This document shows, piece after piece, positions 1 to 15,618 of a stretch of DNA of 64,000 nucleotides. A model generated the notes under the pieces. The model worked only from the letters and a program-made list of their open reading frames with translations. It was not told the DNA's origin and did not search any database. The stretch comes from Planctomycetota bacterium (GTDB taxonomy: Bacteria > Planctomycetota > UBA1135 > UBA2386): positions 1,344,001-1,408,000 of the forward strand of contig OZ245838.1 in the NCBI GenBank assembly GCA_965228735.1, given 5' to 3'. Position 1 is the first letter of the stretch. Each line of letters opens with the position of its first letter. The translations under genes were made by a program, and so were the position numbers.

Positions 1-792
1 GAGCTCTGCGGAGTACAGGTGTCGTCCCAGCAGGTCTCCCGGGCCGCCGCGGCACTCGACGACGAGCTGCAGCAGTGGCGGATGCGCGAGCTCGGCCGGT
101 GCCGCTACCTGGTCCTCGATGCCCGCTACGAAAAGGTCCGGCACGCCGGCTCCGTCATGAGCGCCGCCGTCCTGATCGCGACGGGCGTCGATGATGCAGG
201 CCATCGCTCGGTCCTCGGCGTCAGCGTGTCGCGCTCGGAAGCCGAGGTCCACTGGCGCGACTTCCTCGACAGCCTGCGTGAACGTGGCCTGCACGGGCTC
301 GGACTCATCGTCAGTGACGACCACTCTGGCCTCCGCCAAGCTTTGGCGGCGAGCTTTCCCGGAGTCGCTTGGCAACGCTGCCAGTTCCACCTGCAACGCA
401 ACGCCGCTCCACGAGTGCCGACCGTCTCGTTGCGCCCGTCGATCGCTCGTGGACTTCGTGCGGTCTTCAACGCTCCAGACCGACCTGAGGCCGAACGGCT
501 TCTTGATAGGCTTCTGGAGGATCACGCGGAAACCGCTCCCGACTTTGTCCGGTGGGCTCGCGACAACGTCCCCGACGGCTTCGCTGTCTTCGCGATCCCG
601 GCGACGCACCGTCGCTGCCTTCGCACGACCAACATGCTCGAGCGCCTCAACAAGGAGCTCCTGCGCCGCACCCGCGTTGCGACGCTCTTCCCCAACGACG
701 CCTCTCTTCTCCGGCTCGCCACCGCGGTCCTCATGGAGATCAGCGAGGACTGGGTGACTGGCCGTCGCTATCTCTCCATGGACGCTGAGTGA
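1..792 (+). CDS. IS256 (Mutator-like) DDE transposase, 5'-partial
   Basis: Frame open from base 1 (ELCG..VSSQQVSR); motifs YLVLDARYEKVR, IVSDDHSGL, WQRCQFHLQRN, RTTNMLERLNKELLRRTRV. Confidence 0.95.
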   Translation, partial: ELCGVQVSSQQVSRAAAALDDELQQWRMRELGRCRYLVLDARYEKVRHAGSVMSAAVLIATGVDDAGHRSVLGVSVSRSEAEVHWRDFLDSLRERGLHGLGLIVSDDHSGLRQALAASFPGVAWQRCQFHLQRNAAPRVPTVSLRPSIARGLRAVFNAPDRPEAERLLDRLLEDHAETAPDFVRWARDNVPDGFAVFAIPATHRRCLRTTNMLERLNKELLRRTRVATLFPNDASLLRLATAVLMEISEDWVTGRRYLSMDAE

Positions 793-843
793 AATGATTC
801 GCCGACTATGGGCTCGCTCTTACAGAACGAATGTTGCTTTGCC
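1..843 (+). mobile_element. IS256-family insertion sequence, right part (left end outside window)
   Basis: Transposase ORF followed by an IS256-like end TTACAGAACGAATGTTGCTTTGCC (~820-843), after which unrelated coding sequence starts mid-domain. Confidence 0.85.
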
Positions 844-2262
844 GTGCCGACTCCGGGGAACCCATTCGGCACATGGTATCAGATGGCGGATATGGAGGCG
901 GTGCGCTGGTATCCGACGGTGCGCCACGACACGACGACGGCCCATCGCGCGATCATCATCGGCGGGACGAACTACAGCGGTCCGACCAACGATCGGATGG
1001 AGGCGGTCAACAGCTACGAGGTGGCGCGGCCGGTCTTCAACTCGCAGCCCATTCCCTCACTCCGGCCGGTGCCGCAGGACTTCGACCGCAAGCCGAACCC
1101 CACGTCGCCGACGTGGCCGACCTGGACGAACTGGCTATCGGCGTTTCCAGCCGCGTCAGACCGGCTCTACTGGGGGCCGGAGGTGCCGTTTCCTGCGCCC
1201 GTCCCCGCATTCAGCGACTACCCGCGCCTCCACGCGCTCGGATTCCTCGATCCGATCACAGGGGGCACAGCGCCGCGGCTGTTCGTCTCCGGCTTCGCGA
1301 GCTGGGGGATGCGCTGGGCGCATGATCAGGCGACTGATCCGGCCTTCGGCAACAACCTGCTAACCGGGCAGGGCTACGACCTGGGTCAATACCCGGCCTT
1401 CGGCGACTTCGCGGTTCTATACCCGACCTCGCTGCTGCTGCCGGGCACGATCGGCGGCATCAGCACCCAGGTCGCACGGATCGGCGGCTACCGACTCAGT
1501 GTCAGCAACCAGGCGAGCGACCTCGTCGAGACCGCCAGCGTCAACAGCGGTCCGTCGTCGTGGCAGTCGGGAGCCGGTGGCTCGATCCCTCCGATGGCCA
1601 GCCGGCGCCATCTGGCGAACGTGGTCATGCTGCCCACGGGAGACCTGTTCGCGATCGGCGGTGAGAACGCGCCGGGTAGCTTCAACCTGATACCTGAACT
1701 CCTCACGGGAGGCACTTGGGCACCAATGGCGGCGCACGTCGGCGCCCGGGACTACCATTCGACGGCGATCCTCTTGCCCGATGCCAGGGTGTTCGTCTGC
1801 GGTGGTGAGGCGCGGAAGCAGGCGCCATCGGTCGGCACGGACTACATCATCTGGGAGCCGCCCTACTTCCATCTCGACTACGGCAGCCTACCGCCGACGG
1901 GGATCACGGTCCGCGACGCGACAACCGGCGCAATCGTGCTACAGGATGCCCTCGGCCCCCCGTCGGGCATGCAATACGGACGGACCTACTGGGCGAACTG
2001 GACGAATACTCTCGAGGACGGTATCACCGTGAACAGCGTCGTTCTGATGCGGCCACCAGCCCTGACCCACCACGACGACGGCGGCCAACGGCTGGTGCGG
2101 CTCGTAGCTTGGGACGACAGCGATCAGACCCAGGGACCGCCGACGAGCATCAAGTTCCTGAGCCCAGCCTCCACGCGTCACGCCGCGCCGGGCTGGTGGA
2201 TGCTCTTCCTCGTCAACAGCGGCGGACGTCCTTCGCAGGCCTACTGGGTCCACCTGTCGTAG
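844..2262 (+). pseudogene. Galactose/glyoxal oxidase-like (AA5) copper radical oxidase, Kelch propeller plus DUF1929-like C-domain, N-terminally truncated by IS256
   Basis: RWYPT, RDYHSTAILLPDARV and ALTHH ligand motifs; PGWWMLFLV tail. ORF 808-2262 borrows its ATG from inside the IS end; no signal peptide or first blades. Confidence 0.8.
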
Positions 2263-2265
2263 CTC

Positions 2266-3945
2266 ATGATTCGCTACTGCACACGTCTGGCGTTGGTCGG
2301 CCTCTTCGGATTCCCCATCGCAGCGCAGGATCTGCTGTGGCGCGTCGAAGGGGTCAGTGGCCTGATTGCGCGCGGCGGTGACTTCCACAGGCTCGGCGAT
2401 TTCGACGGGGACGGGTGGGACGATCTTCTGGAACGCGGTGCGGCATGGAACGGCCAGTCGGCGTTCATGACGATCTGGTTCGTGTCGGGTCGGGACGGCA
2501 GTATCCTGTCCGTCGGGACACCCCTGCCCCACCAGTATTGGACGTTCAGCAACATCGCACCGCTCGGCGACATGACCGGCGACGGCGTTCCTGACTACGG
2601 CGGGCACGCCTACGACGCGTTCATCCCGTGGGCCACGCAGACCCTCGCGGTCGTCAATGGCGCCTCCCATTCGATCCACTGGAGCGCGACAATCCCCAAC
2701 GCCTGGGGCACGGATTTCGGCAAGGTCTTGTGCGGCGACCTCGACACCGACAACGATGGTCTCAACGATGTCGTGACCTCGGCGTTCAGTCTGTCGCCGG
2801 GCGGAACGATTATCGTCTACGACAACTCCGGCGCGGAGCGCTACCGCATCATCGATCCGATCCCGAACGTGCAGGTCGGCCTCGACGTCGCGTCGCTGCA
2901 GGGTGACCTCGACGGCGACGGCTGCGACGACTTCGTCAGCACTGGCATCGAGCCGGGCAACCGCGGCGCGGTCGTCGTGTTCTCGGGCCTTACCGGCGCG
3001 GTGCTGCGCTACTCCGTCGGCGAGCAGCCGGGCGACAAACTCGTCAACGCCGGCGCCTGCGGCGACATCGATCGCGACGGCGCACTCGATTACTGCGGCG
3101 GCGGCTCGTTCGGCGCGGGAGTCGTGACCGCGTTCTCGGGCGCCACGGGTCAGATCATCCACTCGTGGCGCGATCCCAACAATAACGGCATGGGGGTCAA
3201 CGTCACCGGCGGCATGGACCTTGACCAGGATGGCGTGCCCGATCTGGTGACGGGACAGGAGTCCACTTCACCAGCGCCGAACGACCGTATCGTCAGCGCG
3301 CTGTCGGGGCGCGACGGCACGTTCCTGGCGCGGTGGTATCGATCCGCCAACGCGTTCACCTGCATGGCCGAGTCCGTGGCGATCCTCGGGCCGGGGCCGG
3401 GCCACCAATACCCATCGATCGTCTACGCCGAGCGCTGCTGGGGTGGGATCGGCAATCCCTGCCCCAGCAACGGCCTGTGCCCCGGCGTGGTCTGGTGCTA
3501 TCGCGGCAGCCCGGCTGGAGTGCGCGCCTACGGGTTGCCCGACGCCAGTTCCGGGCAACCGTTGGTGCGTAGCGGGATGCGCAGCCCGACTCCCGCCGCG
3601 ATCCCAACCGTGAGGTTCACGATGTCCGAAGCACCGCCCGGTGCCGTGGCGGTGCTCATGCTCGGCGCCTCGAACGCGGCCTACCAGGGCATCGCGTTGC
3701 CGCTGCCGCTCGACCCGTTCGGCTTCGGCGGCATCACGCTCTGGACTTCGGCCGACATCACGTTGCTCACGGTTGCCGGCACCAGTGGCGTAGATGCTGG
3801 ATACGCCGAACTCAACGTGTCCCTGCCGCCGGGCCGAATCATCGACTACTCGGGAACGCCGTTCTATGCGCAGTGGCTCTGGTTCGACCCGACCAACTTC
3901 GGCAACCATGGGTCGACGGCGGGCCAGCGCTTTCGGCTGCAGTAG
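2266..3945 (+). CDS. Secreted FG-GAP (integrin-alpha-like) repeat protein with shared C-terminal domain
   Basis: Signal peptide ending PIAA-Q; repeated GDFDGDGWDD / GDMTGDGVPD / DLDQDGVPD Ca-binding motifs; FYAQWLWFDP tail. Confidence 0.85.
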   Translation: MIRYCTRLALVGLFGFPIAAQDLLWRVEGVSGLIARGGDFHRLGDFDGDGWDDLLERGAAWNGQSAFMTIWFVSGRDGSILSVGTPLPHQYWTFSNIAPLGDMTGDGVPDYGGHAYDAFIPWATQTLAVVNGASHSIHWSATIPNAWGTDFGKVLCGDLDTDNDGLNDVVTSAFSLSPGGTIIVYDNSGAERYRIIDPIPNVQVGLDVASLQGDLDGDGCDDFVSTGIEPGNRGAVVVFSGLTGAVLRYSVGEQPGDKLVNAGACGDIDRDGALDYCGGGSFGAGVVTAFSGATGQIIHSWRDPNNNGMGVNVTGGMDLDQDGVPDLVTGQESTSPAPNDRIVSALSGRDGTFLARWYRSANAFTCMAESVAILGPGPGHQYPSIVYAERCWGGIGNPCPSNGLCPGVVWCYRGSPAGVRAYGLPDASSGQPLVRSGMRSPTPAAIPTVRFTMSEAPPGAVAVLMLGASNAAYQGIALPLPLDPFGFGGITLWTSADITLLTVAGTSGVDAGYAELNVSLPPGRIIDYSGTPFYAQWLWFDPTNFGNHGSTAGQRFRLQ

Positions 3946-4022
3946 CCGCAAGAGTCGCTTGCCCGGGCCTGATCTCCTGAACTCTCCGCCCGTGGGCTCA
4001 CCTATCCGCGGGCTCCGCTGAG

Positions 4023-4796
4023 CTAGACACGTCGCCTCGGGTGTCGCCGCCACCGCTGCAGCCGAAGATCGATCGGCCGAATGAACCGGCGGCGGAACTC
4101 GCGCCGCGACCGGATCGTGTTGCCAACCATCGTCGTGCCGGCCAGGGAGTTGGCAGCCTCCAGATACTGCTCCGCGATCGCCATCTCGCCGAACTCGCGC
4201 GCGCTCCGGAATCGACGAGCGAACTCGGGGTCCTTCGCGATCCAGTTGTAGATCGTGCGGGTGCTCGGCGTGCCCGGCAGCCGACAGTAGTCGCGCAGGT
4301 AGTTGCCTTCGCTGACCCAGTCGAGAACCTGTTCGGCCATGTCCTTCGGGACGGGCTTGAGGCGGCGCCGAGGGCGTCGGCCGCCCTCAGGCGGCATCAG
4401 GCCAGCACGGCGGAGATCGGCCAGCGTGGGCGATCGTCGCGGCTTCTCACGGCGAGCGCGCGCCGGGCGGGCCCTCGCCGCCGCGATCGCGTCCCTGGCT
4501 GCCGCGACCGCGGACGATCCCGGGTAGAGCAGGCGCCAGACCTCGCGCGGGCGACCACCGCGTGGTCCGCTCGGCATGACCGTGCGGGAGATCAGGCCCG
4601 TCGCCTGCAACTCGGCGAGGGCGGCGCGCAGGTCCGCACCTGCAACAACGCGGCCCGTCGCTGCATGGAGTTCGCGCATCGACCTCGACGCCTGGTGCAG
4701 CGCCAGCAGCACGCGGTGGCCGAGGAGCGATCGTTTCCCCATGCCGTGCGGGCGCGGCACGTCGACACCCATCGCCACGAGCCAGGACTGCACCAT
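4023..4796 (-). CDS. Winged-HTH plus terminase-small-subunit-like (Sf6 gp1-type HTH) protein; start uncertain (4796, 4772 or 4742)
   Basis: C-half EQVLDWVSEGNYLRDYCRLPGTPSTRTIYNWIAKDPEFARRFRSARE fits the TerS HTH pattern; N-half wHTH ending GGRPREVW. Confidence 0.65.
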   Translation of the reverse strand: MVQSWLVAMGVDVPRPHGMGKRSLLGHRVLLALHQASRSMRELHAATGRVVAGADLRAALAELQATGLISRTVMPSGPRGGRPREVWRLLYPGSSAVAAARDAIAAARARPARARREKPRRSPTLADLRRAGLMPPEGGRRPRRRLKPVPKDMAEQVLDWVSEGNYLRDYCRLPGTPSTRTIYNWIAKDPEFARRFRSAREFGEMAIAEQYLEAANSLAGTTMVGNTIRSRREFRRRFIRPIDLRLQRWRRHPRRRV

Positions 4797-4902
4797 CGCC
4801 GGATTGTAGTTGCGGATGTCGTGTAGTTTGTTCGATCCGCAGCGATCGAGCCAAAGCTGCGCACTTCGTGTGCGCGCGCGAGAGCGCCGACCACCGACCG
4901 CG

Positions 4903-7281
4903 TCAGGCCGACCGCTTCTTCCGACCGCGCTTCGACCGCGACCGCCCCCGCCGGCCGCCCGGCTTCTCGGGCATGCCGTCGTCCTCGGAAGCCGTCTCAT
5001 CCGTCCGTTCCGTCTGATCCGTCTCGGACGCATCGGACGAACTGGAGGCGGACGGAGAATCCGTCCGCCGTCCAGAGGGGGGATCGGGGGGACTCTGCTC
5101 CCCCTCCTTCGGCTTCTTCGCGGGACGGGCGGCGCGCTCGGCTTCGAGTTCCTGGCGGACGCGCTCGGCGTCCTCGGCCAGCACGAGGACAGGGCGCTTG
5201 CTGCGCCCGACATCGAGGATCACCTTGCGGGACAGCGCGATGTCCAGGAAGGCGCGACCCTGCTGCATGTTGAGGCCGGCGGACAGGACGATCGCGTCGC
5301 GGGAGCTGAACCGCCCCTCCCGGTGGAGAGCCTCGACGAGGCGCTGGACGCCGGCGTTCTCGCGCTCGCGCTGCTTCTCGTCGGGGGTCTTGTCCGACGC
5401 CACGCCGACCTTGCTGGCGGCGGCGGGGACCAGGATGCACGAGGACTCGGGTTCGCCGTCCTCGTCTTCGCGACCCGTCGGGGCAACGACCCGCTGGAAT
5501 CGGATGGGCTCGGCGATGCCGCCGTCCTTCTGCTTCAGGGTGATCAGCTCGAACACGTGCCGGTCGTCCCACGCCGTCTGTACGCCGAGCACCGTGTCGA
5601 TGTTGCGCGTGATCGCGCCGCTGCCGCGCACCTGGTTCAGGGTGATCGGGAACCACTTCTCGTTGCCGTTGCGGTCGAAGGCCTGCTTCTGATCGCGCTT
5701 GACCGTGTGGTGGATGATCAGGACCGAGCAGCCGAACTCGTCGCGCAGGCGGGCCAGCGCGCGCAGGACCGGCGCGGTGACCGCGGCGTCGTTCTCGTCG
5801 CCTTCGAGCGCCTGGGACAGCGTGTCGACGACCACGAGGCCGGGGGCGTGGCCCTTCTCCTCGACGACCGCGGCGATCAACTCCCGCATGAGCTTGACCG
5901 AACGCGGGCTGAGTTCGGGGATGCGGTTGCTGATCAGGCAGAACCGGTCCTCGGCGTCCGCCTCGGTGACGTTGTGCTGGTCGCGCCAGAGCCGGAGACG
6001 AGCAGCGAGCCCCTGCTGCCCCTCGCCGCACAGGTAGACCACCGAGCACGGCTTGAGCTTGCGCTCGAAGAACGGCTTGCCGTGGACCAGCCGCATGGCC
6101 AGGTCGATCGCCACAAACGACTTGCCCATCATGGTGTCGCCGGCGAGCAGGATCATGCTGCGCTCCGGCAGCAGGCGGCGAACCTGCCATCGGACCATCG
6201 GCAGCTCTGCCACGTCGGTCCAGTCCTGCAGGCGGATCGCGTCGGGGTTGGGGGTGGTCTTCGCGGGGTCGTCGTCCGCAGCCTCGTCGTGCTGGGACGG
6301 CCCCGCGTCGTCGCCGGGGTCGGGGCCGAACTTGATGTCCGGGTCCGTGCCCTGCGGTTCCCACTTCCAGCCCCGGTCGGTCGCGAACCTGAAGAGCGTC
6401 GCCGCGGTCACGGTCGCGCGCGTGGACCGTCCGAACACGCGCTGCGCGACCGACGCAGCGGACGCGTAGATGCGGTAGGCCTCGCCCTCGCGGTGCTGGC
6501 CTGCGCCACTCCGCAGCTCGTAGGCCTCGGCCTGCGCGGACCACTCCTCGACCAGGTCTGCACCGCGCTCGTCGCCCTGCAGGGCGTCGTGGGCCGCGAA
6601 AATGCACTTGAGCCAGTCGGTCCGCCCAACCGTCGCCTCGATGGCGAACAGCGCGCTACGGACCTCCTCGAACCGCTCGTCGGTCGCCGCACCGGCCGCC
6701 GACATCTTGCCGTAGGCCCTGGGCTCGCCCTGCTCGCGCGCCGGCCCGACCGTCACGTCGAGCCACTCGGTGAGCCACTGCGGTGCGGCGCCGGCGGAGT
6801 CCTCGAAGGGGTCGTCCTCGGTCCACTCGCGACCCGGCCGATCGTCCGGCAGGATCACGTAGCCGCCGAAGCCGCGCACGTCGATGCCTAGCCGCTTCAG
6901 GTTGGCCATGCCGTAGCGGCGGCCCGCCGGCATCTCGTAGACGAGGTGCTGCCCACCGCTCGGCGTCGTCGCGACCAGCGAGGTGCCGATCGGATCCGGA
7001 CCGGCGATCTGGCCCAAGGCCTCGCGACCGTCACCGCCGCCGTTCTTCGGCACGTCGAGGTCGATGACGACGTGCTGCGAGAGCCCGGGCACCCAGCCGA
7101 TCTCGGCGTCCGGCCAGGCGCTCCACCACTCGGTGATCTGGGCGTGGTCGGTCGTCGCGGCAGGAAAGCCGTTGCTGGTCAGCGGTCGCTTGTCGCGGCA
7201 CGGGAACACGTGCCAGCCGAGCGCCGCGTAGGCCAGAGCGTGGTCCATCGGCGAGCGGGACTCGTCGGCCGGAATGGTCAC
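4903..7281 (-). CDS. Bifunctional primase/polymerase (Prim-Pol) + PriCT-like + AAA_25/RepA helicase
   Basis: ALAYAALGWHVFPC..KRP, VVIDLD, TPSGGQHL, IDVRGFGGYVILP; Walker A GDTMMGKS, YLCGEG, VVVDTL, IIHHT, RGSGA. GTG start overlaps the upstream stop (GTGA), GGAGG RBS. Confidence 0.92.
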   Translation of the reverse strand: MTIPADESRSPMDHALAYAALGWHVFPCRDKRPLTSNGFPAATTDHAQITEWWSAWPDAEIGWVPGLSQHVVIDLDVPKNGGGDGREALGQIAGPDPIGTSLVATTPSGGQHLVYEMPAGRRYGMANLKRLGIDVRGFGGYVILPDDRPGREWTEDDPFEDSAGAAPQWLTEWLDVTVGPAREQGEPRAYGKMSAAGAATDERFEEVRSALFAIEATVGRTDWLKCIFAAHDALQGDERGADLVEEWSAQAEAYELRSGAGQHREGEAYRIYASAASVAQRVFGRSTRATVTAATLFRFATDRGWKWEPQGTDPDIKFGPDPGDDAGPSQHDEAADDDPAKTTPNPDAIRLQDWTDVAELPMVRWQVRRLLPERSMILLAGDTMMGKSFVAIDLAMRLVHGKPFFERKLKPCSVVYLCGEGQQGLAARLRLWRDQHNVTEADAEDRFCLISNRIPELSPRSVKLMRELIAAVVEEKGHAPGLVVVDTLSQALEGDENDAAVTAPVLRALARLRDEFGCSVLIIHHTVKRDQKQAFDRNGNEKWFPITLNQVRGSGAITRNIDTVLGVQTAWDDRHVFELITLKQKDGGIAEPIRFQRVVAPTGREDEDGEPESSCILVPAAASKVGVASDKTPDEKQRERENAGVQRLVEALHREGRFSSRDAIVLSAGLNMQQGRAFLDIALSRKVILDVGRSKRPVLVLAEDAERVRQELEAERAARPAKKPKEGEQSPPDPPSGRRTDSPSASSSSDASETDQTERTDETASEDDGMPEKPGGRRGRSRSKRGRKKRSA
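4992..5073. repeat. CCGTC/GACGG iteron-like cluster with a perfect 10-bp hairpin
   Basis: CCGTC at 4992, 5001, 5010, 5019 (9-bp period); GGACG at 5026, 5035, 5050; GGCGGACGGA-GAA-TCCGTCCGCC at 5047-5069. Confidence 0.6.
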
Positions 7282-7529
7282 GGCGCCTCCCCCGCCAGTG
7301 CCGTAAGCGCGGCCAGCAGTCGCTGGAGTTCCTCGACGGTCGTGCACCACCCCCGCCCGCCACCGCGGAAGCGGCGCAGGCGAACCCCGCTCACGCCGGC
7401 CGTGGTCCAGCGGTAGACGGTGGCGACCGAGACCAGGCGGCCGTCGCCGCGTTGCGGCAGGTGTTGCGGCGCGAGCGCCAGCGGGACGGCCTGCTCGCCA
7501 GCCCACCAGCAGTTCGTAATCTTGCTCAT
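7278..7529 (-). CDS. DUF1580-like small HTH (excisionase/AlpA-like) protein
   Basis: LPQRGDGRLVSVATVYRWTTAGVSGVRLRRFRGGGRGWCTTVEELQRLL; coupled to the primase. Confidence 0.75.
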   Translation of the reverse strand: MSKITNCWWAGEQAVPLALAPQHLPQRGDGRLVSVATVYRWTTAGVSGVRLRRFRGGGRGWCTTVEELQRLLAALTALAGEAP

Positions 7530-7681
7530 CGGATGCTGTCCTGCCTGCCGGGGCACATCCCCGTGCAGGTGGACTCATCCTTGGGCAGCGAGCGGCGACG
7601 AGCGGCGGCCGTTCGTGCGCCGCTCGTTGGCAGATGGACGTGGCGCAGCCGCATCAGGCAGAGTTCAATCGCACCCAGGAA

Positions 7682-7846
7682 ATGGCAGTCTCGAACTACG
7701 ATCGCCTTCCAAGAGTCGTAGCCCTCTTGGCCCTGTCCCTCCCCCTCGCCGCGCAGACCAGCGGAGGCGTCATCGGCTCAGGCTGCGTGCTCGCCCCATC
7801 CGCTCGCCCGGGACGCCGGGCGGTGTCACGAACGCCTCGACGTTGA
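7682..7846 (+). pseudogene. 5' fragment of a secreted protein (signal peptide + GSGC), truncated
   Basis: MAVSNYDRLPRVVALLALSLPLAA-Q-TSGGVIGSGC, then runs into an opposite-strand fragment. Confidence 0.45.
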
Positions 7847-9110
7847 ACACGACCGTGCCGGCCGGCAACGGCGTGCCGAGTACGAGCGCGCCGAGCGCGC
7901 CGACAGGTGCATCGTGCGTCGCGACCGCGAACTCGGGGTTGGGCGCGATCGGCGCGCTGTTCGGCTGCAGGAACGTCGGCGGGCCGCAGGGGCTCGTGGC
8001 CTGGCCGAAGCGCGCCATCGTGGCCGGCAGCGTGCGGTGCACGGCGATCCAACCTTCGCGATTGCCGGCGAACGTCGGATCGAACGCGTTGCCGGTGATC
8101 GGGAAGTCGGTCGACCTGGTCTGGCCCGCCACCCGCACGCCGCCCTGGCCATCGGGCTCGATGGTCGTGACGATCTGGGCCGTGCTGCCGCCGAACCACG
8201 TCGAGTACTGCACCGTGGTCGCGGTCGATCCGGGCTGCAACCGCAGCAGGAACGCCGCCGCGAGGTTCTGGGCGGCCAGCCGCTGCGGCTGGGGAGCACC
8301 GGCGGTGATCGGCCAGTTCGGCGAGAACGAGTGCCCCGCCAGCACGTAGGAGCCGCTCGACTCCCGGTAGGCCGAGAGCACGTAGTCATTGTCCGTGCCG
8401 TCCACGCCGGTCGCGTAGAGGATCTGGTCCTGCACCGTGTCGAGGTGCACGACCAGCCCGCCGTTGCCGCCCGCGCCGAACGGCAGGGCGTTCGCGGTGA
8501 ACGGGAAGTCCGTCGAAGCGGTGTTGCTCACGATCACGATCCGGTCGGCGCCGTCGCCGCGCAGCTCATGGCAGAGCTCGTCCTGCGAGCCGCCGAGAAC
8601 CGCGGAGTACGTCAGGCCGGCGCCGGCCAGATCGAAGCGGCTGACTGCCAGATCGCGTGCTCCGCGCGGGCCATGGACGCGCGCGTTGGGGTTGGGGTAG
8701 TCGGCCGATGCCGTGTGGCACGCGACGGTGATCGTGCCGGCGGCGTTGCTGATCACCTGCACGTTGCGCGGGCCGAGCGCGCCGCCGGACCAGAAGAAAT
8801 CGGGCCCCTCGTCGGCGGAGCCGCCGAGATTCTCCGCCCGCAGCGCGATCGCGAGGTTCGGCTCCATGCAGCGGAGCCGAGCAACGCCTGCCAGCGTTTG
8901 GTGGAGAGCTCGCAGCTCCTTGGCGAAGTGCGCGAGTTCACCGAGATGAAGGATCGGACCCGTCGCGTGCACCTCGGCGCCCGAGACTCGAACCCGCGCC
9001 TCCACGACGAGCCAGTTGCCGTCCCAGTGGTCCTGAGCCTCATCACACTGGCGGGAGTGCACCCACACCCCGAGGGGCCCAACTTCGATGTCGGCTGACC
9101 GCTCGTCCAT
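7770..9110 (-). pseudogene. Chimeric ORF: WapI-like immunity protein N-part fused to SBBP-type propeller blades and a truncated shared C-terminal domain
   Basis: DHWDGNWLVVEARV..GPILHLGELAHF..MEPNL then YSAVLGGSQDE, SNTASTDFP, YSTWFGGS, AGQTRSTDFP; no signal peptide. Confidence 0.6.
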
Positions 9111-9396
9111 GACCGACGAGCAGAGCGACGGACTCCTCCGTCGGCAACCGAAGTTGCTGGCCGCAGCACGCCGAGGTCACTCGTCGATACTCCACAACAC
9201 TCCGCGTCAACGGAATCCCGGACCCGATCGGGCCCGAGTAGGCCATTCAGGCCGTTGTTGGCACTCCCGGCCCTGTCGCCCAGCTATGCTCCCGCACCGA
9301 CCCGCTTCGGCTCTGCCGTTGCAGGCCGTGCCATTGAGACGTAGCTCGCTGTCGAGCAGCGCGCTTTGCGCGGAATCGATGCCTGGAGGTCGCGAC

Positions 9397-11742
9397 ATGG
9401 ACATGCCCGAGAGGATCGGTCACTACAGCATCCGAGGCCGTCTCGGCGACGGCGCGATGGGCGTCGTGTTCGAGGCGCGGCAGGAGAATCCGAGCCGCGA
9501 CGTGGCGCTCAAGGTCCTGCGGGGCGGGGCGTTCGTCGACGACGCCCGGCTGAAGATGTTCCAGCGCGAGGCCGAGACGCTCGCTCGGCTCCGACACCCG
9601 TGCATCGCTGCCATCTACGAGTCGGGGCACACCGACGACGGGCAGCACTTCTTCGCGATGGAACGCGTCCACGGCGAGCAGCTCGACGACTACCTGCAGC
9701 GGCGCCCGCAGCGTCCCGACAACGACGAGCTCCGGTTCCGCCTGGGCCTGTTTCGCAAGATCGTGGACGCCGTGCACTACGCGCACATGCGTGGCGTCAT
9801 CCATCGCGATCTCAAACCGTCCAACATCATGGTCGGCGATGGCGTCGACCAGCAGGGCCTGCCGGAGATCAAGGTGCTCGACTTCGGTCTGGCCCGGATC
9901 ACCGAGACCGACATGCCAGCAGCGACGGTCACGACCGAGGTCGGCGTGATCAAGGGGACGCTGCCCTACATGTCGCCCGAACAGACGCGGGGCAACCCGG
10001 ACGAGATCGATGTTCGCACCGACGTCTACGCGTTGGGCGTGATCCTCTACGAACTGCTGACCGGGCAGCGCCCCTACGAGGTGAGCAGTGGCGACATCCT
10101 CGACGCGATGCGGGTGATCTGCGACGCCCCGCCGGCGCCGGTTTCCCGGCACTGGACCGGCGTGCGCCGGCTGGATGCCGACATCGAGACCATCGTCGCC
10201 GAGGCGCTCGAGAAGGATCCCGAGCGCCGCTACGGCAGCGCCCAGGCGCTCGCCGACGACGTCGGCCGCTTCCTCAACAACGAGGCGATCAACGCCCGCC
10301 CGGCGACCGCGATCTACCAGCTCAAGAAGCTGGTCTCGCGCCACAAGGTGCCGTTCGCGTTCGTGGTGCTGTTGTTCGTGACGGTGAGCGCATTCGGCGT
10401 CTGGATGAGCGTGCTGTACGCCCGGGCCGAGGGGCTCCGCGTGGAGACCGAGGCAGCTCGCAGCTCGCTGCAGACGACCACGCAGTTCCAGCAGTCCATG
10501 CTCAGTGACATCGACGCGGAGGAGATGGGGCGCGGGATCCTCGCGGCAGAACGGGCGAGCATTCGCGAGGCCATGGCACGCGAGGGCCGCCCCCCGGACG
10601 AGATCGCACCGGCGCTGGCGTCGTTCGACGAGCTCGTGACCGGCGTCAACGCCACCGACCTGGCTCTCCAGGTCGTCGAGGACCACGTGCTCGCCCGCGC
10701 CGTCGAGACGCTCGAGCGGGACTTCGCCGACGAGCCGGTCACCCGCGCCGCGCTGCAGTACACGATCGCGATCACCTACAAGGGCCTCGGCATGTACGAA
10801 CTCGCCGTGCCCTTGCAGCAGGCCGCCCTCGCGACGCAACGCGAGGCGCTCGGCGCGGACCACGCAGCGACGCTGTCCTCGTTGAACAACATGGGCAGCC
10901 TGCTCCGACGCCAGGGCAAGCTGGAGCAGGCCATGCCCTACTACGCCGACTCGCTGGCCCGCAAGCGGCGCACCCTGGGCAACGACCATCGGGAGACCCT
11001 GCTCTCGATCAACAACATGGCGCTTCTGCTCGACTTGATGGGCCGCCCCGACGACGCCGAGCGCTACTACCGCGAGGCGCTCGCGGGCAACCGCCGGGCC
11101 CTGGGCAACGACGACCCGGAGACGATCAACACCATCAACAACCTGTGCGTGTTGCATCAACGTCATGGCCAGTCCGAGAAGGCGCTCCCCTACGCCCGCG
11201 AGGCGGTGGCGGGCCTCCGCCGCGTCGTGGGCGACGACGACCCCAGGACGCTGACCGCGATGGGCAACCTGGGGCCCATCCTGTTCACATTGGGCAAGAC
11301 GGCGGAGGCCGAGCCCTACCACCGGGACTCCCTTGCGGCCAGCCGCCGCATCCAGGGCGACAACCACCCGGAGACCATGAGGCTGCTCCACAACATGGGG
11401 CGCCTGCTCAACGCCCTCGGCGAGCACGACGAAGCCGCGAGGATCCTCGCGGACGGCGAAGCGACAGCGCGACGCACGTGGACCGGCACCCTCGCAAAGT
11501 GGCTCGGCAGCTATCTCCACCACCTCGGCGCGGCGAGGCTCGGCCTCGGCAGGCTCGCCGAGTCCGAGGCGACCCTGCTCGAAGCCCACGCCCTGCTGGT
11601 CGCGGGCTTTGGCGACGAACACCCGCGCACGCAGTTGACGGTCGAGCAGTTGAGCCAGCTGTACGACACCTGGCATCGCGCCGAACCGGGCAAGGGCTAC
11701 GACGCGACAGCCACCGAATGGCGGGCGAAGTTGGTCAGGTAG
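9397..11742 (+). CDS. Ser/Thr protein kinase, one TM helix, TPR repeats
   Basis: LGDGAMGVV, VALK, IHRDLKPSN, DFGLA, GTLPYMSPEQ, DVYALG; TPRs of LGNDHRETLLSINNMA type; GGAGG before 9397. Confidence 0.95.
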   Translation: MDMPERIGHYSIRGRLGDGAMGVVFEARQENPSRDVALKVLRGGAFVDDARLKMFQREAETLARLRHPCIAAIYESGHTDDGQHFFAMERVHGEQLDDYLQRRPQRPDNDELRFRLGLFRKIVDAVHYAHMRGVIHRDLKPSNIMVGDGVDQQGLPEIKVLDFGLARITETDMPAATVTTEVGVIKGTLPYMSPEQTRGNPDEIDVRTDVYALGVILYELLTGQRPYEVSSGDILDAMRVICDAPPAPVSRHWTGVRRLDADIETIVAEALEKDPERRYGSAQALADDVGRFLNNEAINARPATAIYQLKKLVSRHKVPFAFVVLLFVTVSAFGVWMSVLYARAEGLRVETEAARSSLQTTTQFQQSMLSDIDAEEMGRGILAAERASIREAMAREGRPPDEIAPALASFDELVTGVNATDLALQVVEDHVLARAVETLERDFADEPVTRAALQYTIAITYKGLGMYELAVPLQQAALATQREALGADHAATLSSLNNMGSLLRRQGKLEQAMPYYADSLARKRRTLGNDHRETLLSINNMALLLDLMGRPDDAERYYREALAGNRRALGNDDPETINTINNLCVLHQRHGQSEKALPYAREAVAGLRRVVGDDDPRTLTAMGNLGPILFTLGKTAEAEPYHRDSLAASRRIQGDNHPETMRLLHNMGRLLNALGEHDEAARILADGEATARRTWTGTLAKWLGSYLHHLGAARLGLGRLAESEATLLEAHALLVAGFGDEHPRTQLTVEQLSQLYDTWHRAEPGKGYDATATEWRAKLVR

Positions 11743-11979
11743 GGGGCAGGGCCGCGCAACGGGGGGCGCGCAACCGGGGTCCGCGCCCCGCGGACAGCCG
11801 CTTCCGCTTCGGCAACCAACGCCTGCAGAGTGACGTTGGCACTGTCGGTGAATCGTTCCGGGCTCGATCGCGAGCGGTTCGACGTGCTGCCATCCGGGAC
11901 CACGCCGCGGTCGACCGCCGCGGCGTCGGATACTTGGGGAGGCACATTCGGGACACCGATCCGCTGCCGCAACGCACGG

Positions 11980-11995
11980 TGGCACTCCTGGTGCA
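11980..11995 (+). promoter_or_regulatory. Candidate sigma54 -24/-12 promoter
   Basis: TGGCAC-TCCTG-GTGCA (GG-N10-GC), 90 bp upstream of the Kelch gene. Confidence 0.4.
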
Positions 11996-12084
11996 CGCTG
12001 AACTGGTAGTCTCTCGTCGGAGAACCCGACCAGAGGGCGGAGCCTGGCATGACAGAGCGAGGCCCTGCAGTCGACTACGAAGCC

Positions 12085-13440
12085 ATGCATCCATCGCTCA
12101 TCAACGCCTGCGTCATTGTCGCAATCACCGCCCCGGTCGCCTCACAAGCAACGTGGACGCAGCTCTATCCCAGTTCCTCGCCAGGGCCGCGATCGGGCGC
12201 CATGATGGCGTGCCACGAGGCCTCGAACACGATGCTCATGCTCTTTGGCAGCGGGCAATCGGACGCCTGGCAGTTCGCCGGGAACGCTTGGCTCCAGCTG
12301 ACCGGTCCGCTGCCGCCGCAGCGCGGCAGCGCCAAACTGGTATACGACTCCGCTCGGGAACGACTCGTGCTGTTCGGGGGTCGCAGCCAAGGCAACGCAT
12401 TCGATGATACCTGGGTTTGGGATGGGACGAGCTGGAGCGGGCCGCTGCTGGCGGTTCATCCGGCCGCCCGCTGGGGCCACGCCATGGCGTTCGATCGCGA
12501 CCGTGAAGTCGTGGTTCTCTACGGCGGCTTCGTGTCCACCAGCAGCTACCGCGAGGATCTCTGGGAATGGGATGGCGTGGCCTGGCAGCTGATCGCGACA
12601 ACCAACGCTCCCGGCGGCCGCTTCGACAGCAAGATGGCGTTCGACCCGAACAGTCGGAACGTGCTGCTCCATGGCGGCAGCGTGGTTGTCCAAGGTAGCG
12701 AGATTCCGGTGAACGACACGTGGACCTGGGACGGTGCGGCCTGGCAGCAGCATCAGCCAGTAACGCCTCCCACGATTCGTTTCGGTGGCGACATGGTCTG
12801 CGACCTGGACCGACGTCGGGTCTTGTTGTTCGGTGGTTCGACAGGCAACCACTTCGCGTGGGAGTGGGACGGATCTGAGTGGAGCATCGTCTTGCAGGCA
12901 TCGCCGAGCGAGCGCAGCGGGCACGCGATGGCCTACGACAGCGCGAACCGCCGGACGGTGCTCCATGGGGGCAATTGGCTGGGCAGTTCGAGCTGGACTC
13001 TCAGCGACACTTGGGTGTTCGAATCGGCGCATCCGGCGACCGTCACCCCATACGGTTCCGGTTGCGCGGGCGTTGCCGGAGCACCGGACCTGGCGGCCGA
13101 TGCCTACGCGCTACCCTGGCTCGGCGACACAGCTCGCAACCGCGTCACGAACCTGGACCCGGCCGGCAGCGCCGTCTTCTTCGCGACCGGGCTCGATCCG
13201 TCAGCCCCGGTTTCGCTGGCGCCGTTCGGGATGCCGGGTTGCGACCAACTCGTGACCCCTGCGGCCGTCGAGCTGGCCGCCGCCAGCAACGGCGAAGCGA
13301 CATGGTCCCTGATGATCCCAACGTCGACGTCCTTCGCTGGCGTACAGTTGTTCCAGCAGGTGGCGGCGCTCGATCCCGCTGCCAACGCCGCCGGGCTGAC
13401 GGTCAGCAACGGCGTCGAGATGACGATCGGGATTCGCTGA
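12085..13440 (+). CDS. Secreted Kelch-repeat propeller with shared C-terminal domain
   Basis: Signal peptide ending PVAS-Q; repeats YD..R..VLFGG..DTW.WDG..W; YGSGC...PGC...QQVAALDP..SN. Confidence 0.9.
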   Translation: MHPSLINACVIVAITAPVASQATWTQLYPSSSPGPRSGAMMACHEASNTMLMLFGSGQSDAWQFAGNAWLQLTGPLPPQRGSAKLVYDSARERLVLFGGRSQGNAFDDTWVWDGTSWSGPLLAVHPAARWGHAMAFDRDREVVVLYGGFVSTSSYREDLWEWDGVAWQLIATTNAPGGRFDSKMAFDPNSRNVLLHGGSVVVQGSEIPVNDTWTWDGAAWQQHQPVTPPTIRFGGDMVCDLDRRRVLLFGGSTGNHFAWEWDGSEWSIVLQASPSERSGHAMAYDSANRRTVLHGGNWLGSSSWTLSDTWVFESAHPATVTPYGSGCAGVAGAPDLAADAYALPWLGDTARNRVTNLDPAGSAVFFATGLDPSAPVSLAPFGMPGCDQLVTPAAVELAAASNGEATWSLMIPTSTSFAGVQLFQQVAALDPAANAAGLTVSNGVEMTIGIR

Positions 13441-13590
13441 TCGCGACTGGCGGCATTTCGACTGCGGCCGTGGTCAGGACACGGTCACCGGCCGCGGCCC
13501 GAAGGGCAGCAGCGGCACGCCCCCGGCACCCGACCACGCGGGGGAGCCGATACCCATTCGCGTTCTGCGCGCCCGCCACGTATCACCGCA

Positions 13591-15618
13591 GTGCTGAAGC
13601 CTGCCCGTTCCCCACTCTTCGTTACGAACGCCCTGCGGTTCACCGGCCCGTTGGCGATCACTGCCGCGTTCGCCGCCACTCTTTCCGCCCAAACCGATTG
13701 GCCCCGAACCGATTGGCCCCAGTATCGGGGCGTCCACGGCGACGGGGTGGCCGCACCGCAGCAGATCCTGCAGGCCTGGGGCCCCGAAGGCCCGCCCGAG
13801 CTCTGGCGGCGGGAGTTCGGCACGGGATTCTCCACCGTGGCGTCGGTCGGCGACCGGCTCTACACGATGGGCGCACCGGCCGAACTCGAGGAAGCGTTCT
13901 GCCTCGACGCACGAACGGGCGAGACCATCTGGCGCGTTCCGCTCGGACCGCGCTTTGCCGATCAGTTCGGCGACGGTCCGCGCGCGACCCCCACCGTCGA
14001 CGGCGACACGGTCTTTGCGGTGTCGTCGACCATGCAACTCGCCGCGATCACCGCGACGGACGGCGAAGTCCGATGGCAGAAGGACCTGCTGACGGAGTTC
14101 GCCCTCGAGCAGCCGCGCTTCGGATTCTCGGCCTCGGTGGTCGTGGTCGGGGACCGGGCCGTGCTCGAGGTCGGCGCCGGCGAGGGCAAGGCCGTCATCG
14201 CGTTCGCGCGCGCGACCGGCGACATCGTGTGGACCGCGCTCGACGGCAAGCCGAGCAAGTCGACCCCGCTGCTGGCGGAGCTCGACGGCGTGCCACAGCT
14301 GATCTTCAACCGCCCGTCGGAGATGGCAGCGCTGTCGCTCGACGGCGAGGTGCTGTGGACGCACGAGGCGGGGCGGGACACCATCGCGATGGCCCACATC
14401 GTGCCACCCGACGTCGTTCTCACGTCGTCGGCCTACATGGGCAAGGGCACCGAAGCGGTACGAGTGAGCCGCACGGGCGAGGAATTCACGACCGAGCGCG
14501 CCTGGGTGAACCGGCGCTTTCGCAACCACTTCAACAACTCGGTCCTCGTCGGCGGTCACCTGTACGGGTTCGACAACTCGACGCTCCGCTGCCTCGATGC
14601 CGTGACCGGCGAGCTCGCGTGGTCGAAGCGAGGTTTCGGCAAGGGCTCGCTGATCGCGTGCAGCGACCTGTTGTTCGTGCTCGGCGATCAGGGCGTCCTG
14701 GCGCTCGTTGCCGCCGATCCCGAGCGCTTCCGCGAGCTCGGGCGCGTGCAGGCAATGCAGGACGGTGCCGGACGCTGCTGGACCTCACCGACCCTCGCCT
14801 CGGGGCGGCTGTTCGTTCGCAACCTCGAGGAGATCGTGGCCTACGACGTGCGCGCGGCGGCGACGACGGTGACGCCGACGCCGCCAACCGCGATCGCGAT
14901 GCCGGACGGCGACACCACGAAGCCGACGTCGGCAGCGAACGCCGAGTTGCAGCTGCCCGAGATTCTCCGACGCTACGCCGAGGCTCGTGGCGGCCTCGAC
15001 CGGTGGCGCGAGGTCCGCACCCTCGAGATGCAGGGCACGTTCCGGGCCTTCAGCGAGAGCGGCCCGTTCACGCTGCAGCGCCGCCGCGAGGACCTGTACC
15101 GGTTCGAGTACGCCATGGGCGACAACATGGACGCCCGTGGTCGCGACCGTGAGGGCCTGTGGTGGCGCTACCACCTGTTCCAGGTCACGGAGCCCGCCAG
15201 GGTCGAGGCCGCCCCCTACCATCGCCAGATGAAGCGCGAGTCGATGTTCGAACCCGCACTGCTCGGCGCCGCGGAGAAGGGGATCCAGGTCAAACGCGTC
15301 GGCCGCGGCAACGTCGACGGTCAACCGACGATCGAACTCGAGCTGACGTTTCCCGACGAGTCGAAGGAAACGTGGCACCTGCACCCCGAGACGTTCCTCG
15401 CGGTCGCGATCGATTCGACGGTCGTCGACATGACCCAGACTCGCGAGCCGATGTCGATGCGAACGTTCTGCTCCGACTTCCGCACCGTCGACGGCCTCGT
15501 GCTGCCGTTCCGGACCGCGATGGAGTTCGGGGCCCGACTCGAGGAGATCGAGGTCGATCGCGTGACCGTGAATCCGGAGCTCGATGCGGCGGCGTTCGAC
15601 ATGGCGCGCAAGAAGTAG
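13591..15618 (+). CDS. PQQ-like (BamB-type) beta-propeller fused to a LolA-like C-terminal domain
   Basis: DWPQYRG, GPRATP, CLDA.TGE..W, CWTSPTLASGRLFVRN; second domain EILRRYAEARGG...FCSDFRTVDGLVLPF. Confidence 0.85.
   Translation: MLKPARSPLFVTNALRFTGPLAITAAFAATLSAQTDWPRTDWPQYRGVHGDGVAAPQQILQAWGPEGPPELWRREFGTGFSTVASVGDRLYTMGAPAELEEAFCLDARTGETIWRVPLGPRFADQFGDGPRATPTVDGDTVFAVSSTMQLAAITATDGEVRWQKDLLTEFALEQPRFGFSASVVVVGDRAVLEVGAGEGKAVIAFARATGDIVWTALDGKPSKSTPLLAELDGVPQLIFNRPSEMAALSLDGEVLWTHEAGRDTIAMAHIVPPDVVLTSSAYMGKGTEAVRVSRTGEEFTTERAWVNRRFRNHFNNSVLVGGHLYGFDNSTLRCLDAVTGELAWSKRGFGKGSLIACSDLLFVLGDQGVLALVAADPERFRELGRVQAMQDGAGRCWTSPTLASGRLFVRNLEEIVAYDVRAAATTVTPTPPTAIAMPDGDTTKPTSAANAELQLPEILRRYAEARGGLDRWREVRTLEMQGTFRAFSESGPFTLQRRREDLYRFEYAMGDNMDARGRDREGLWWRYHLFQVTEPARVEAAPYHRQMKRESMFEPALLGAAEKGIQVKRVGRGNVDGQPTIELELTFPDESKETWHLHPETFLAVAIDSTVVDMTQTREPMSMRTFCSDFRTVDGLVLPFRTAMEFGARLEEIEVDRVTVNPELDAAAFDMARKK

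Follow-up and report, generated by a model that had tools for sequence, protein, structure and literature searches.

We analysed a 64,000-nucleotide stretch of the genome of a Planctomycetota bacterium (contig OZ245838.1, positions 1,344,001 to 1,408,000; hereafter the window) and in particular a block of three genes near its left end, which an initial annotation had read as part of a phage satellite or its remnant, similar to phage-inducible chromosomal islands (PICIs). The host genome, here called G000, consists of a single contig of 7.19 Mb, and features left of the window are given negative coordinates, that is, the genome position minus 1,344,000. The three genes encode a DUF1580 protein of 83 amino acids (7529-7278), a primase-helicase of 792 amino acids (7281-4903) and a 257-amino-acid protein in which a winged helix is fused to a small terminase subunit (TerS) domain (4796-4023). 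All are on the minus strand, and the TGA of the first gene overlaps the GTG of the second as GTGA (7281-7278); this arrangement is present as first described, and matches to Pfam and PHROG families agree with it. Contigs from three of four public sequencing runs cross the three genes and the junction to their right at about 7.8 kb with zero differing letters, and the fourth run is fragmentary; an assembly artefact at the junction is therefore excluded.

The DUF1580 protein matches PF07618 (E 2e-6, 27.7 bits against a cut-off of 24.4), and no match to the AlpA family was found for it. Its structural model (pLDDT 88) is most similar to 6hn7 (Z 6.8, root-mean-square deviation 2.1, 62 aligned residues), a structure deposited with the paper on the PICI protein Rpp, which we take to be RppC. 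The GIsul2 and Pukovnik excisionases and BldC follow, with the whole range at Z 6.8-5.5, and the score of 6hn7 is within one Z unit of those of two excisionases. RdfS is matched in Foldseek at E 0.3, and two of 11 DUF1580 members match the excisionase family phrog_66, at E 0.01 only. These fold scores are modest, yet every match is of the MerR/Xis type, and the DUF1580 protein is likely the counterpart of AlpA or of an excisionase, with a predicted MerR/Xis-type fold.

The primase-helicase has an open frame and is composed of Prim-Pol (E 8e-31), PriCT_2 (E 9e-8) and AAA_25 (E 1e-35) domains; it also matches phrog_906 (E 3e-41). An iteron-like array located within the 3' end of its gene (4976..5072, strand not assigned) is likely the origin of replication. 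A pentamer recurs there at 4992, 5001, 5010 and 5019 with a 9-bp period, copies in the opposite sense are found at 5051 and 5061, and a fraction of 1e-5 of genome windows attains this density of 8-9 copies in 150 nt. Short-repeat arrays of other sequence occupy the same place at the primase 3' end in three related islands (L025, L062 and L063). PICI origins are described as two iteron sets 3' of rep around an AT-rich spacer (PMC6092414); here the two opposed pentamer sets lie inside the primase 3' end, without such a spacer.

The product of the third gene had been predicted to be TerS-like. This holds for its C-terminal half, which matches PF20901 (Sf6_terminase, E 5e-14) and phrog_1482 (TerS, E 4e-14), whereas the N-terminal half is a winged helix, so that the protein is not a plain TerS. 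Family matches, homologs and a structural model together describe a winged helix at about residues 24-90, a basic linker, and an Sf6-type TerS helix-turn-helix (HTH) with a helical hairpin at residues 151-249, with no C-terminal tail. Residues 15-95 of Sf6 gp1 match the protein at E 1e-13 in a sequence profile comparison, and the winged helix resembles the C-terminal end of the primases of related islands (E 3e-7 in L062, E 5e-7 in L022). The model has a mean pLDDT of 79.6, with 71-94 in the HTH and hairpin and low confidence in the linker; the top Foldseek rows are Sf6 gp1 (4dzp, E 1.4e-3) and winged helices of the PadR/HxlR type, none of them below E 0.001. Our gene caller, a home-made hexamer model that misses genes in low-GC loci, chose only a shorter start for this gene, at 4340. 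The winged helix and the TerS half are kept in frame in 15 homologs, and dN/dS values of 0.13-0.47 in seven comparisons, rough and with some dS near saturation, indicate purifying selection on both.

A protein search with the fusion returned 18 matches, comprising the query, 15 two-domain homologs (43-81% identity), an integrase fusion and one partial sequence. Only five clusters span both halves in an exhaustive profile search of 1.84 billion representatives, and the family is therefore small. It was found in four of 339 genomes of the class (G000, G001, G303 and G316) and, in a sample of 400 genomes of the phylum, nowhere except in G000; these scans covered samples of genomes, many of which are incomplete. 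ESM Atlas gave no usable match, and none of 7,984 candidates was a fused form of greater length, which is weak evidence. In a quick tree, the TerS halves of the fusions form one clade on a long stem (0.71, SH-aLRT 95) that stands apart from TerS proteins in phage context.

A conserved 25-bp site is located 62 nt upstream of the fusion gene (4882-4858, minus strand) and is a candidate binding or pac-like site. It recurs at 25 of 25 positions in L020, where the fusion protein is 52% identical, at 23 of 25 in inverted orientation in L025, and at 19 of 25 in L021. No other place in the genome scores above 20 of 25, and a pattern search in 91 genomes yielded three matches, one of them a chance match inside a coding gene (G291). 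Both the site and the fusion are retained though the upstream replicase differs in all four islands, being of the AAA_25 type in L020, of the DUF3987 type in L025 and of the Prim-Pol/DUF5906 type in L021. A sigma-70 scan predicted no promoters, and an Rfam search of the island returned the tRNA plus chance hairpin matches only.

The order DUF1580-primase-fusion, which had been put forward as something to seek in other genomes, does recur. In L020 and L025 it forms the right part of a larger co-oriented arrangement, tRNA-integrase-...-DUF1580-primase-fusion, and L021 shows the three genes only, as its contig ends before the left part. In L050 (G001, positions 6307-7365) the N-terminus of an integrase is fused in frame to the TerS half behind a tRNA-Val (P0014), with the island core deleted between them; since the deletion joined both in frame, integrase and fusion must have been co-oriented in the ancestor of this locus. 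In L020 we also noted a 96-amino-acid open reading frame (ORF) between integrase and DUF1580 (3712-4002) that appears similar to the C-terminus of a lambda-type TerL, with no PHROG match at 1e-6. Separately, the cargo behind the fusion in L025 (11448-20762) encodes an HNH nuclease, an SNF2/SWIM helicase and a large DEAD-box helicase and looks like a defence cluster.

The integrase missing from the window had been suspected either to its left or among sequence deleted at the 7.8-kb junction. It lies to the left, about 11 kb from the triad and behind a tRNA-Leu(TAG) gene; the island reaches about 8.2 kb beyond the window. From left to right, this end comprises the tRNA (-8293..-8205, plus strand), a 17-bp stretch on the attL side (-8213..-8197), a palindrome (-8133..-8089) at a place where relatives have a palindrome or a short repeat, a leader (-8018..-7977) and a tyrosine integrase of 393 amino acids with an open frame (-7960..-6779, plus strand, PF00589 E 4e-10). 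Its candidate catalytic residues are R229, K264, H343, R346, H368 and Y377. A truncated gene, orf2, follows on the plus strand (-6677 to about -5910); it likely encodes a repressor, its lost end reading as a winged helix in the sequences of homologs. The corresponding site is empty in both same-genus genomes (G001 and G002), and G001 matches the host sequence for 8 nt past the tRNA end. As a separate observation, an island-specific palindrome is found 70-115 nt behind the tRNA and before the integrase here, in L020, L022, L025 and L050 and in an island at 5178 kb of the same genome, and two other islands have a 21-nt repeat at that place, of which a further copy lies about 190 nt inward of the right att repeat.

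Several observations tie this left end to the triad. A hairpin-forming leader precedes DUF1580 (7585..7626, minus strand), likely as an operator, and it is identical at 36 of 42 nt, in inverted sense, to the integrase leader. This pair scores 54, and none of 272 cross-island pairs exceeds 33. The shared leader was found in two of 17 islands tested, here inverted and in the co-oriented L070 in direct orientation, and is thus not a rule of the family. That the 42-bp inverted repeat forms terminal repeats or the arms of attP was considered and rejected as the main explanation, the pair in L070 being direct and internal. In addition, an orf2 homolog (P0166, 87%) and a fusion homolog (P0002, 81%) are each encoded on a contig of 37,342 bp, and the two contigs are probably identical. 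We conclude that the triad and the integrase very probably belong to one integrative element.

Islands of this general kind are common in the bacterial family, with the integrase family present in 34 and DUF1580 in 41 of 91 genomes. Four of the closest integrases have DUF1580 on the contig (L062, L063, L070 and L071), in the co-oriented order integrase, ORF, DUF1580, and in L062 and L063 a primase comes next; DUF1580 was not detected in L069 and L072, which also carry close integrases. A few of the more distant integrase-DUF1580 pairs are convergent (G002:C691, G011:C138 and G022:C1). The Sf6-type TerS domain PF20901 is rarer, occurring at 15 places in 11 of the 91 genomes. Four of these places are of the fusion type. 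Five precede TerL or a TerL-like gene, three of them confirmed by a scan and two (L055 and L095) assigned by position and size only; in L052, L054 and a prophage of G000 it is a stand-alone relative of TerS that precedes TerL. Two places are in other phage-like context (L051 and L059), two (L041 and L096) have too little surrounding contig for an assignment, and two are in islands in which no TerL was called (L053 and L056). L053 (G025, 5321-14066) is an 8.7-kb island in tRNA-Phe with 55-bp repeats, an integrase, an HTH gene, a primase and a full-length ordinary TerS, its genes being directed towards the tRNA.

The right end of the island is less regular. The gene at 9110-7770 (minus strand) stops about 50 residues short of its C-terminal domain, and the 7.8-kb junction is real. 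A direct copy of the tRNA-end stretch, matching at 14 of 17 positions, is found on the plus strand at 7790..7806 and may be an eroded attR, a secondary site or a chance match. Six plus-strand sites of this quality or better occur in 7.19 Mb, the tRNA included, the length of 17 bp was chosen after the match had been seen, and the 17-mer could equally be native coding sequence of the truncated neighbour; we give a modest preference to the view that the site is meaningful. With 7790 as its end, the island measures 16.0 kb, or 13.2 kb minus its insertion sequence (IS) copies. Direct repeats flanking the integrase island, which had been proposed as a check, did not emerge beyond this match: k-mer and BLAST searches for a full attR within 60 kb and genome-wide found no copy of the tRNA 3' half, whereas five other islands of the genome carry near-perfect tRNA repeats of 45-55 bp. 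The proposed check of read coverage and circular junctions was likewise negative, with no raised depth (triad against tRNA end, 9.6 and 8.1 in run X3, 19 and 22 in X4, 6.3 and 3.1 in X6) and no attL-attR joint in the contigs of four runs. Two side observations concern the junction itself: the truncated gene is a mosaic of a WapI-like immunity domain (PF24716), a repeat-protein fragment and a truncated C-terminal domain of export type, and a 54-codon ORF with an exported-type start (7682-7846, plus strand) enters the junction, has no homolog in the genome and could be a fragment or spurious.

The triad is inverted relative to the integrase, in contrast to the one-way transcription from the integrase seen in L020, L025, L062 and L063, and the frame of orf2 is cut off at about residue 257 of 301, where it meets, head-on, an hsdR gene truncated at its 3' end. 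The simplest history that we infer is that a block with one end inside orf2 and the other near 7.7 kb was inverted and that sequence was deleted at either end. A clean inversion was also considered, in which the remainder of orf2 would lie upstream of DUF1580, and was discarded: the resemblance found there scored like that of 40-49% of random segments.

On balance, we lean towards the interpretation that the triad is the replication and likely packaging module of an island in tRNA-Leu that resembles a PICI satellite, and that this copy was stranded after the inversion and deletions. The initial phrase "satellite or its remnant" is refined accordingly: the genes form the core of an integrative element that is anchored at a tRNA and has a gene set like that of PICIs, and "remnant" is the better description of this copy. 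The missing att repeat of 45-55 bp, the truncated orf2, the lack of raised depth and the lack of an attL-attR joint all support stranding, and the copy is likely immobile. The island family as a whole probably spreads in phage particles. Chances appear even that the fusion acts on the packaging of a helper phage.

A possible mechanism in an intact member of the family can be outlined as follows. The orf2 product would repress the DUF1580 leader, and induction of a helper phage would lift this repression. The DUF1580 protein, with its predicted Xis/AlpA fold, would then excise the island together with the integrase, and the primase-helicase would replicate it from the iterons at the 3' end of its own gene. 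The TerS half of the fusion may join the TerS ring of the helper, in which helper subunits would supply the missing tails that bind TerL, while the winged helix would dock the ring on the DNA of the island, either at the 25-bp site or at the origin. Packaging would thereby be diverted, by a logic analogous to that of Rpp. The specific form of this proposal, a packaging adaptor made of a primase-derived winged helix and a tail-less TerS that sits in the helper ring, is tethered to the 25-bp site beside the origin and poisons the helper, is offered tentatively as possible but doubtful.

A number of results weigh against the packaging interpretation and against the history proposed for this copy. 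The fusion is about 25-60 residues shorter at its C-terminus than six ordinary TerS proteins from the loci in an alignment, and it covers only positions 3-71 of the 106 positions of PF20901, where ordinary TerS proteins cover about 3-105; in P22 and lambda it is the TerS C-terminus that binds TerL, according to the review PMC9611059. Among the Sf6 DNA-binding residues K33, R48 and K59 given in the same review, only K59 has a basic counterpart in our reading of the alignment. The same TerS-type domain also occurs in three to five tandem copies in other proteins, and TerS homology alone therefore proves no packaging role. Most integrase-DUF1580 islands have no Sf6-type TerS (DUF1580 in 41 genomes against PF20901 in 11). 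The full-length fusion was absent from IMG/VR, where one locus has the TerS half only, and from 50,697 GenBank phage records, and IMG/VR scans with the primase, the integrase and the 25-bp site gave nothing. The 25-bp site is absent from the resident prophage, whose TerS is no close relative of the fusion clade. Neither induction nor particles nor a circle were seen in contigs of the four runs, which drop rare forms, and none of 12 joints connects the two ends. The missing 3' part of orf2 does not occur elsewhere in the genome, so the inversion is not clean. As a side observation on the tandem proteins, there are many of 250-400 amino acids (P0025, P0026 and similar) that are built of three to five Sf6-TerS-type HTH units.

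Much of this evidence would fit a different role for the fusion within the same island. The TerS-derived domain could have taken on the role of an ordinary DNA-binding regulator, or could do nothing more than block the packaging of phages; the island would then have no packaging of its own and would spread in that state or hardly at all. The missing C-terminal tail, the reuse of the domain in tandem repeats, the long stem leading to the fusion clade and the fact that most related islands manage without an Sf6-type TerS would all be expected from this explanation, and the conserved site just upstream could be an autoregulatory operator. However, the helical hairpin that builds the ring is retained and modelled, and the gene stands where terS stands in PICIs, behind pri-rep-ori (PMC6092414). 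The site in L025 is inverted, which fits a site that works in either orientation better than a promoter, and in the short island L053, in which no TerL was called, an ordinary TerS of full length occupies the same position. We therefore consider a regulator or blocker unlikely, while it survives better than any other alternative.

Two elements might also have collided head to head, one contributing the integrase and orf2 and the other the triad, with its own integrase lost at 7.8 kb. The opposite orientation, the 11-kb gap, the breaks at -5.9 kb and 7.8 kb and the absence of the orf2 remainder would be accounted for in this way, but the integrase and DUF1580 have an island-specific leader in common, homologs of orf2 and the fusion both occur on 37,342-bp contigs, and a direct att-like copy lies just outside the triad; a collision is improbable. 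Still less probable is an island that remains active, with the site at 7790 working as attR, a functional convergent layout and the two leaders as arms flanking attP. The integrase, DUF1580, primase and fusion frames are indeed all open, a circle would have the leaders on its two sides of the core, at distances of 179 and 164 nt, and a span of 16.0 kb (13.2 kb without IS) is PICI-sized. Yet related islands use 45-55-bp repeats that start in the anticodon arm, of which there is none here, the direct and internal leader pair of L070 is no pair of arms, the four runs show neither a joint nor excess depth, and the 17-mer may be native to the truncated neighbour. Finally, an ordinary prophage that lost its head and tail genes, as the region full of deletions and the usual place of Sf6-type TerS as a head gene before TerL (in L052, L054 and the resident prophage) might suggest, is very improbable and already largely refuted, given that the compact headless order recurs in L025, in L050 at another tRNA and in other genomes, and that the fusion is absent from phage collections and its clade separate from TerS in phage context.

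A candidate helper is present in the same genome. A 44.2-kb podovirus-like prophage (G000:C1:1861728-1905923) is integrated in tmRNA with 28-bp att repeats and encodes a TerS of the same family as the fusion (phrog_1482; genome positions 1897621-1898289), TerL, a portal-type connector, a major capsid protein and tail proteins. It is a candidate helper only, because its TerS is distant from the fusion clade and the 25-bp site is absent from it.

The remainder of the island is made up of cargo and insertions. An hsdR gene with an hsdS-like fragment, the latter read from the sequence with no family match, is located at -5958..-1328 (minus strand), and the hsdR frameshift is also present in contigs of other runs. 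The hsdS-like fragment is split by an IS256 copy (-3212..-1846) with an 8-bp target duplication and nine further full copies in the genome. A second IS256-family element (-583..843, plus strand; its right part, 1..843, in the window) has a 9-bp target duplication and eight further genome copies, and splits a galactose-oxidase-like cargo gene (-1270..2262, plus strand; 3' part 808..2262). The next cargo gene encodes an exported FG-GAP repeat protein (2266..3945, plus strand).

Other mobile elements were noted elsewhere in G000. Behind the prophage lies a 16.2-kb tandem element (G000:C1:1905898-1922109, region L082-L084) with a 30-bp repeat, integrases, two HTH genes, a primase-helicase, a protease and its own TerL, and with no capsid match among the ORFs scanned. 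A 17.4-kb island in tRNA-Leu(CAA) (L086, G000:C1:1280386-1297800) is bounded by 55-bp repeats; besides a DUF1580-like gene it carries genes for a tape-measure protein and a head-maturation protease (phrog_53), and four ORFs scanned gave no capsid or TerL match. Four more tRNA-anchored integrase islands with near-perfect att repeats of 45-50 bp are found at 71-78.5, 542-565, 5178-5223 and 6934-6943 kb (7.5, 23, 44.7 and 8.3 kb, respectively). Near tRNA-Met, two identical 143-amino-acid ORFs stand 503 bp apart behind an integrase (G000:C1:4706903-4707837), a tandem duplication that is possibly an assembly artefact.

Placed among described systems, the island appears to be a damaged representative of a planctomycete island family that is common yet apparently undescribed; the fusion protein and the 25-bp site set it apart. 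Searches of the open full-text literature, which leaves subscription papers mostly outside, found no phage satellite in Planctomycetota and nothing on DUF1580. The main text of the SatelliteFinder preprint (10.1101/2022.09.14.508007) does not contain "Planctomyc", and its supplements may list such hosts; neither Planctomycetes nor DUF1580 is mentioned in the main text on VEIMEs (PMC9618062). DUF1580 is nevertheless carried by 41 of 91 genomes of the bacterial family, in many of them within a few kb of a tRNA-anchored integrase, and the fold result gives this domain a plausible role as an excisionase or AlpA counterpart. The system is also compact, comprising a 257-amino-acid protein, a 25-bp site and, in the same genome, the TerS and TerL of a candidate helper, and it bears on how pac-type TerS proteins gain sequence specificity, which the review PMC9611059 treats as unresolved. 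If the adaptor proposal is correct, a mixed ring would be a third route of redirection besides the complete TerS of SaPI and Rpp, and a cassette of site and fusion gene would be moving between islands with four different replicases.

Among the ORFs between the tRNA and 7.8 kb that were scanned, two of which have no Pfam family, no capsid-morphogenesis, phage structural or lysis gene was found, in line with the initial remark that the triad region has no capsid, portal or TerL. Capsid-control genes of the kind that mark P4-like satellites (Psu, Delta and Sid) have no Pfam match among the ORFs scanned. TerL, portal and capsid genes beside TerS, the mark of cf-PICIs and prophages, are absent here and were not seen behind the fusion in L025 (10 kb, four ORFs scanned) or in L050 (6.3 kb, two ORFs scanned and the rest judged by eye). 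The concern that the triad might sit inside complete prophages or plasmids was not borne out: in addition to the phage and IMG/VR collections, 72,556 plasmid records contain no full-length fusion.

The closest comparison is with PICIs that have their own TerS (SaPI and the Gram-negative EcCI and PmCI), as defined in 10.1101/2022.09.14.508007 and PMC6092414. In common with these, the island has a tyrosine integrase, a small regulator of predicted AlpA/MerR fold, a primase-replicase with iteron-like repeats at its 3' end and a terS homolog behind it, cargo and no structural genes, a size of about 13-16 kb and, in its relatives only, one direction of transcription. It differs in that the regulator is DUF1580 with no AlpA-family match, the TerS is fused to a winged helix and has no C-terminal tail, the iterons are inside the primase gene with no AT-rich spacer, no capsid-morphogenesis gene is present (as is also the case in type B PICIs), and this copy is inverted and has no full attR; helper dependence is a hypothesis here. 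The island probably works like a type-B PICI. We refrain from classing this copy among the PICIs, since two features that were checked, att repeats and transcription in one direction, are absent from it.

The likeness to Rpp of E. coli PICIs, an island protein described as joining the helper TerS and changing its DNA specificity (PMC6739421), is one of proposed logic only, although the top fold match of DUF1580 also stems from that paper. The candidate here is an Sf6-type TerS with a winged helix, no search made it an Rpp homolog, and its interaction with a helper is hypothesised. The comparison with Sf6 gp1 and other ring-forming TerS proteins (PMC9611059) is more direct, since the HTH and the first helix match and the helical hairpin is kept; the differences are a winged helix of about 90 amino acids at the N-terminus, a basic linker of 55 amino acids and a stalk or C-terminal moiety that is short or absent. 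Finally, VEIMEs (PMC9618062) and PICMIs (PMC10803314) are likewise integrative elements of small size that carry a tyrosine integrase, a primase and AlpA-like genes, and some VEIMEs carry TerS. VEIMEs have been seen in particles, which sets them apart from the island described here.

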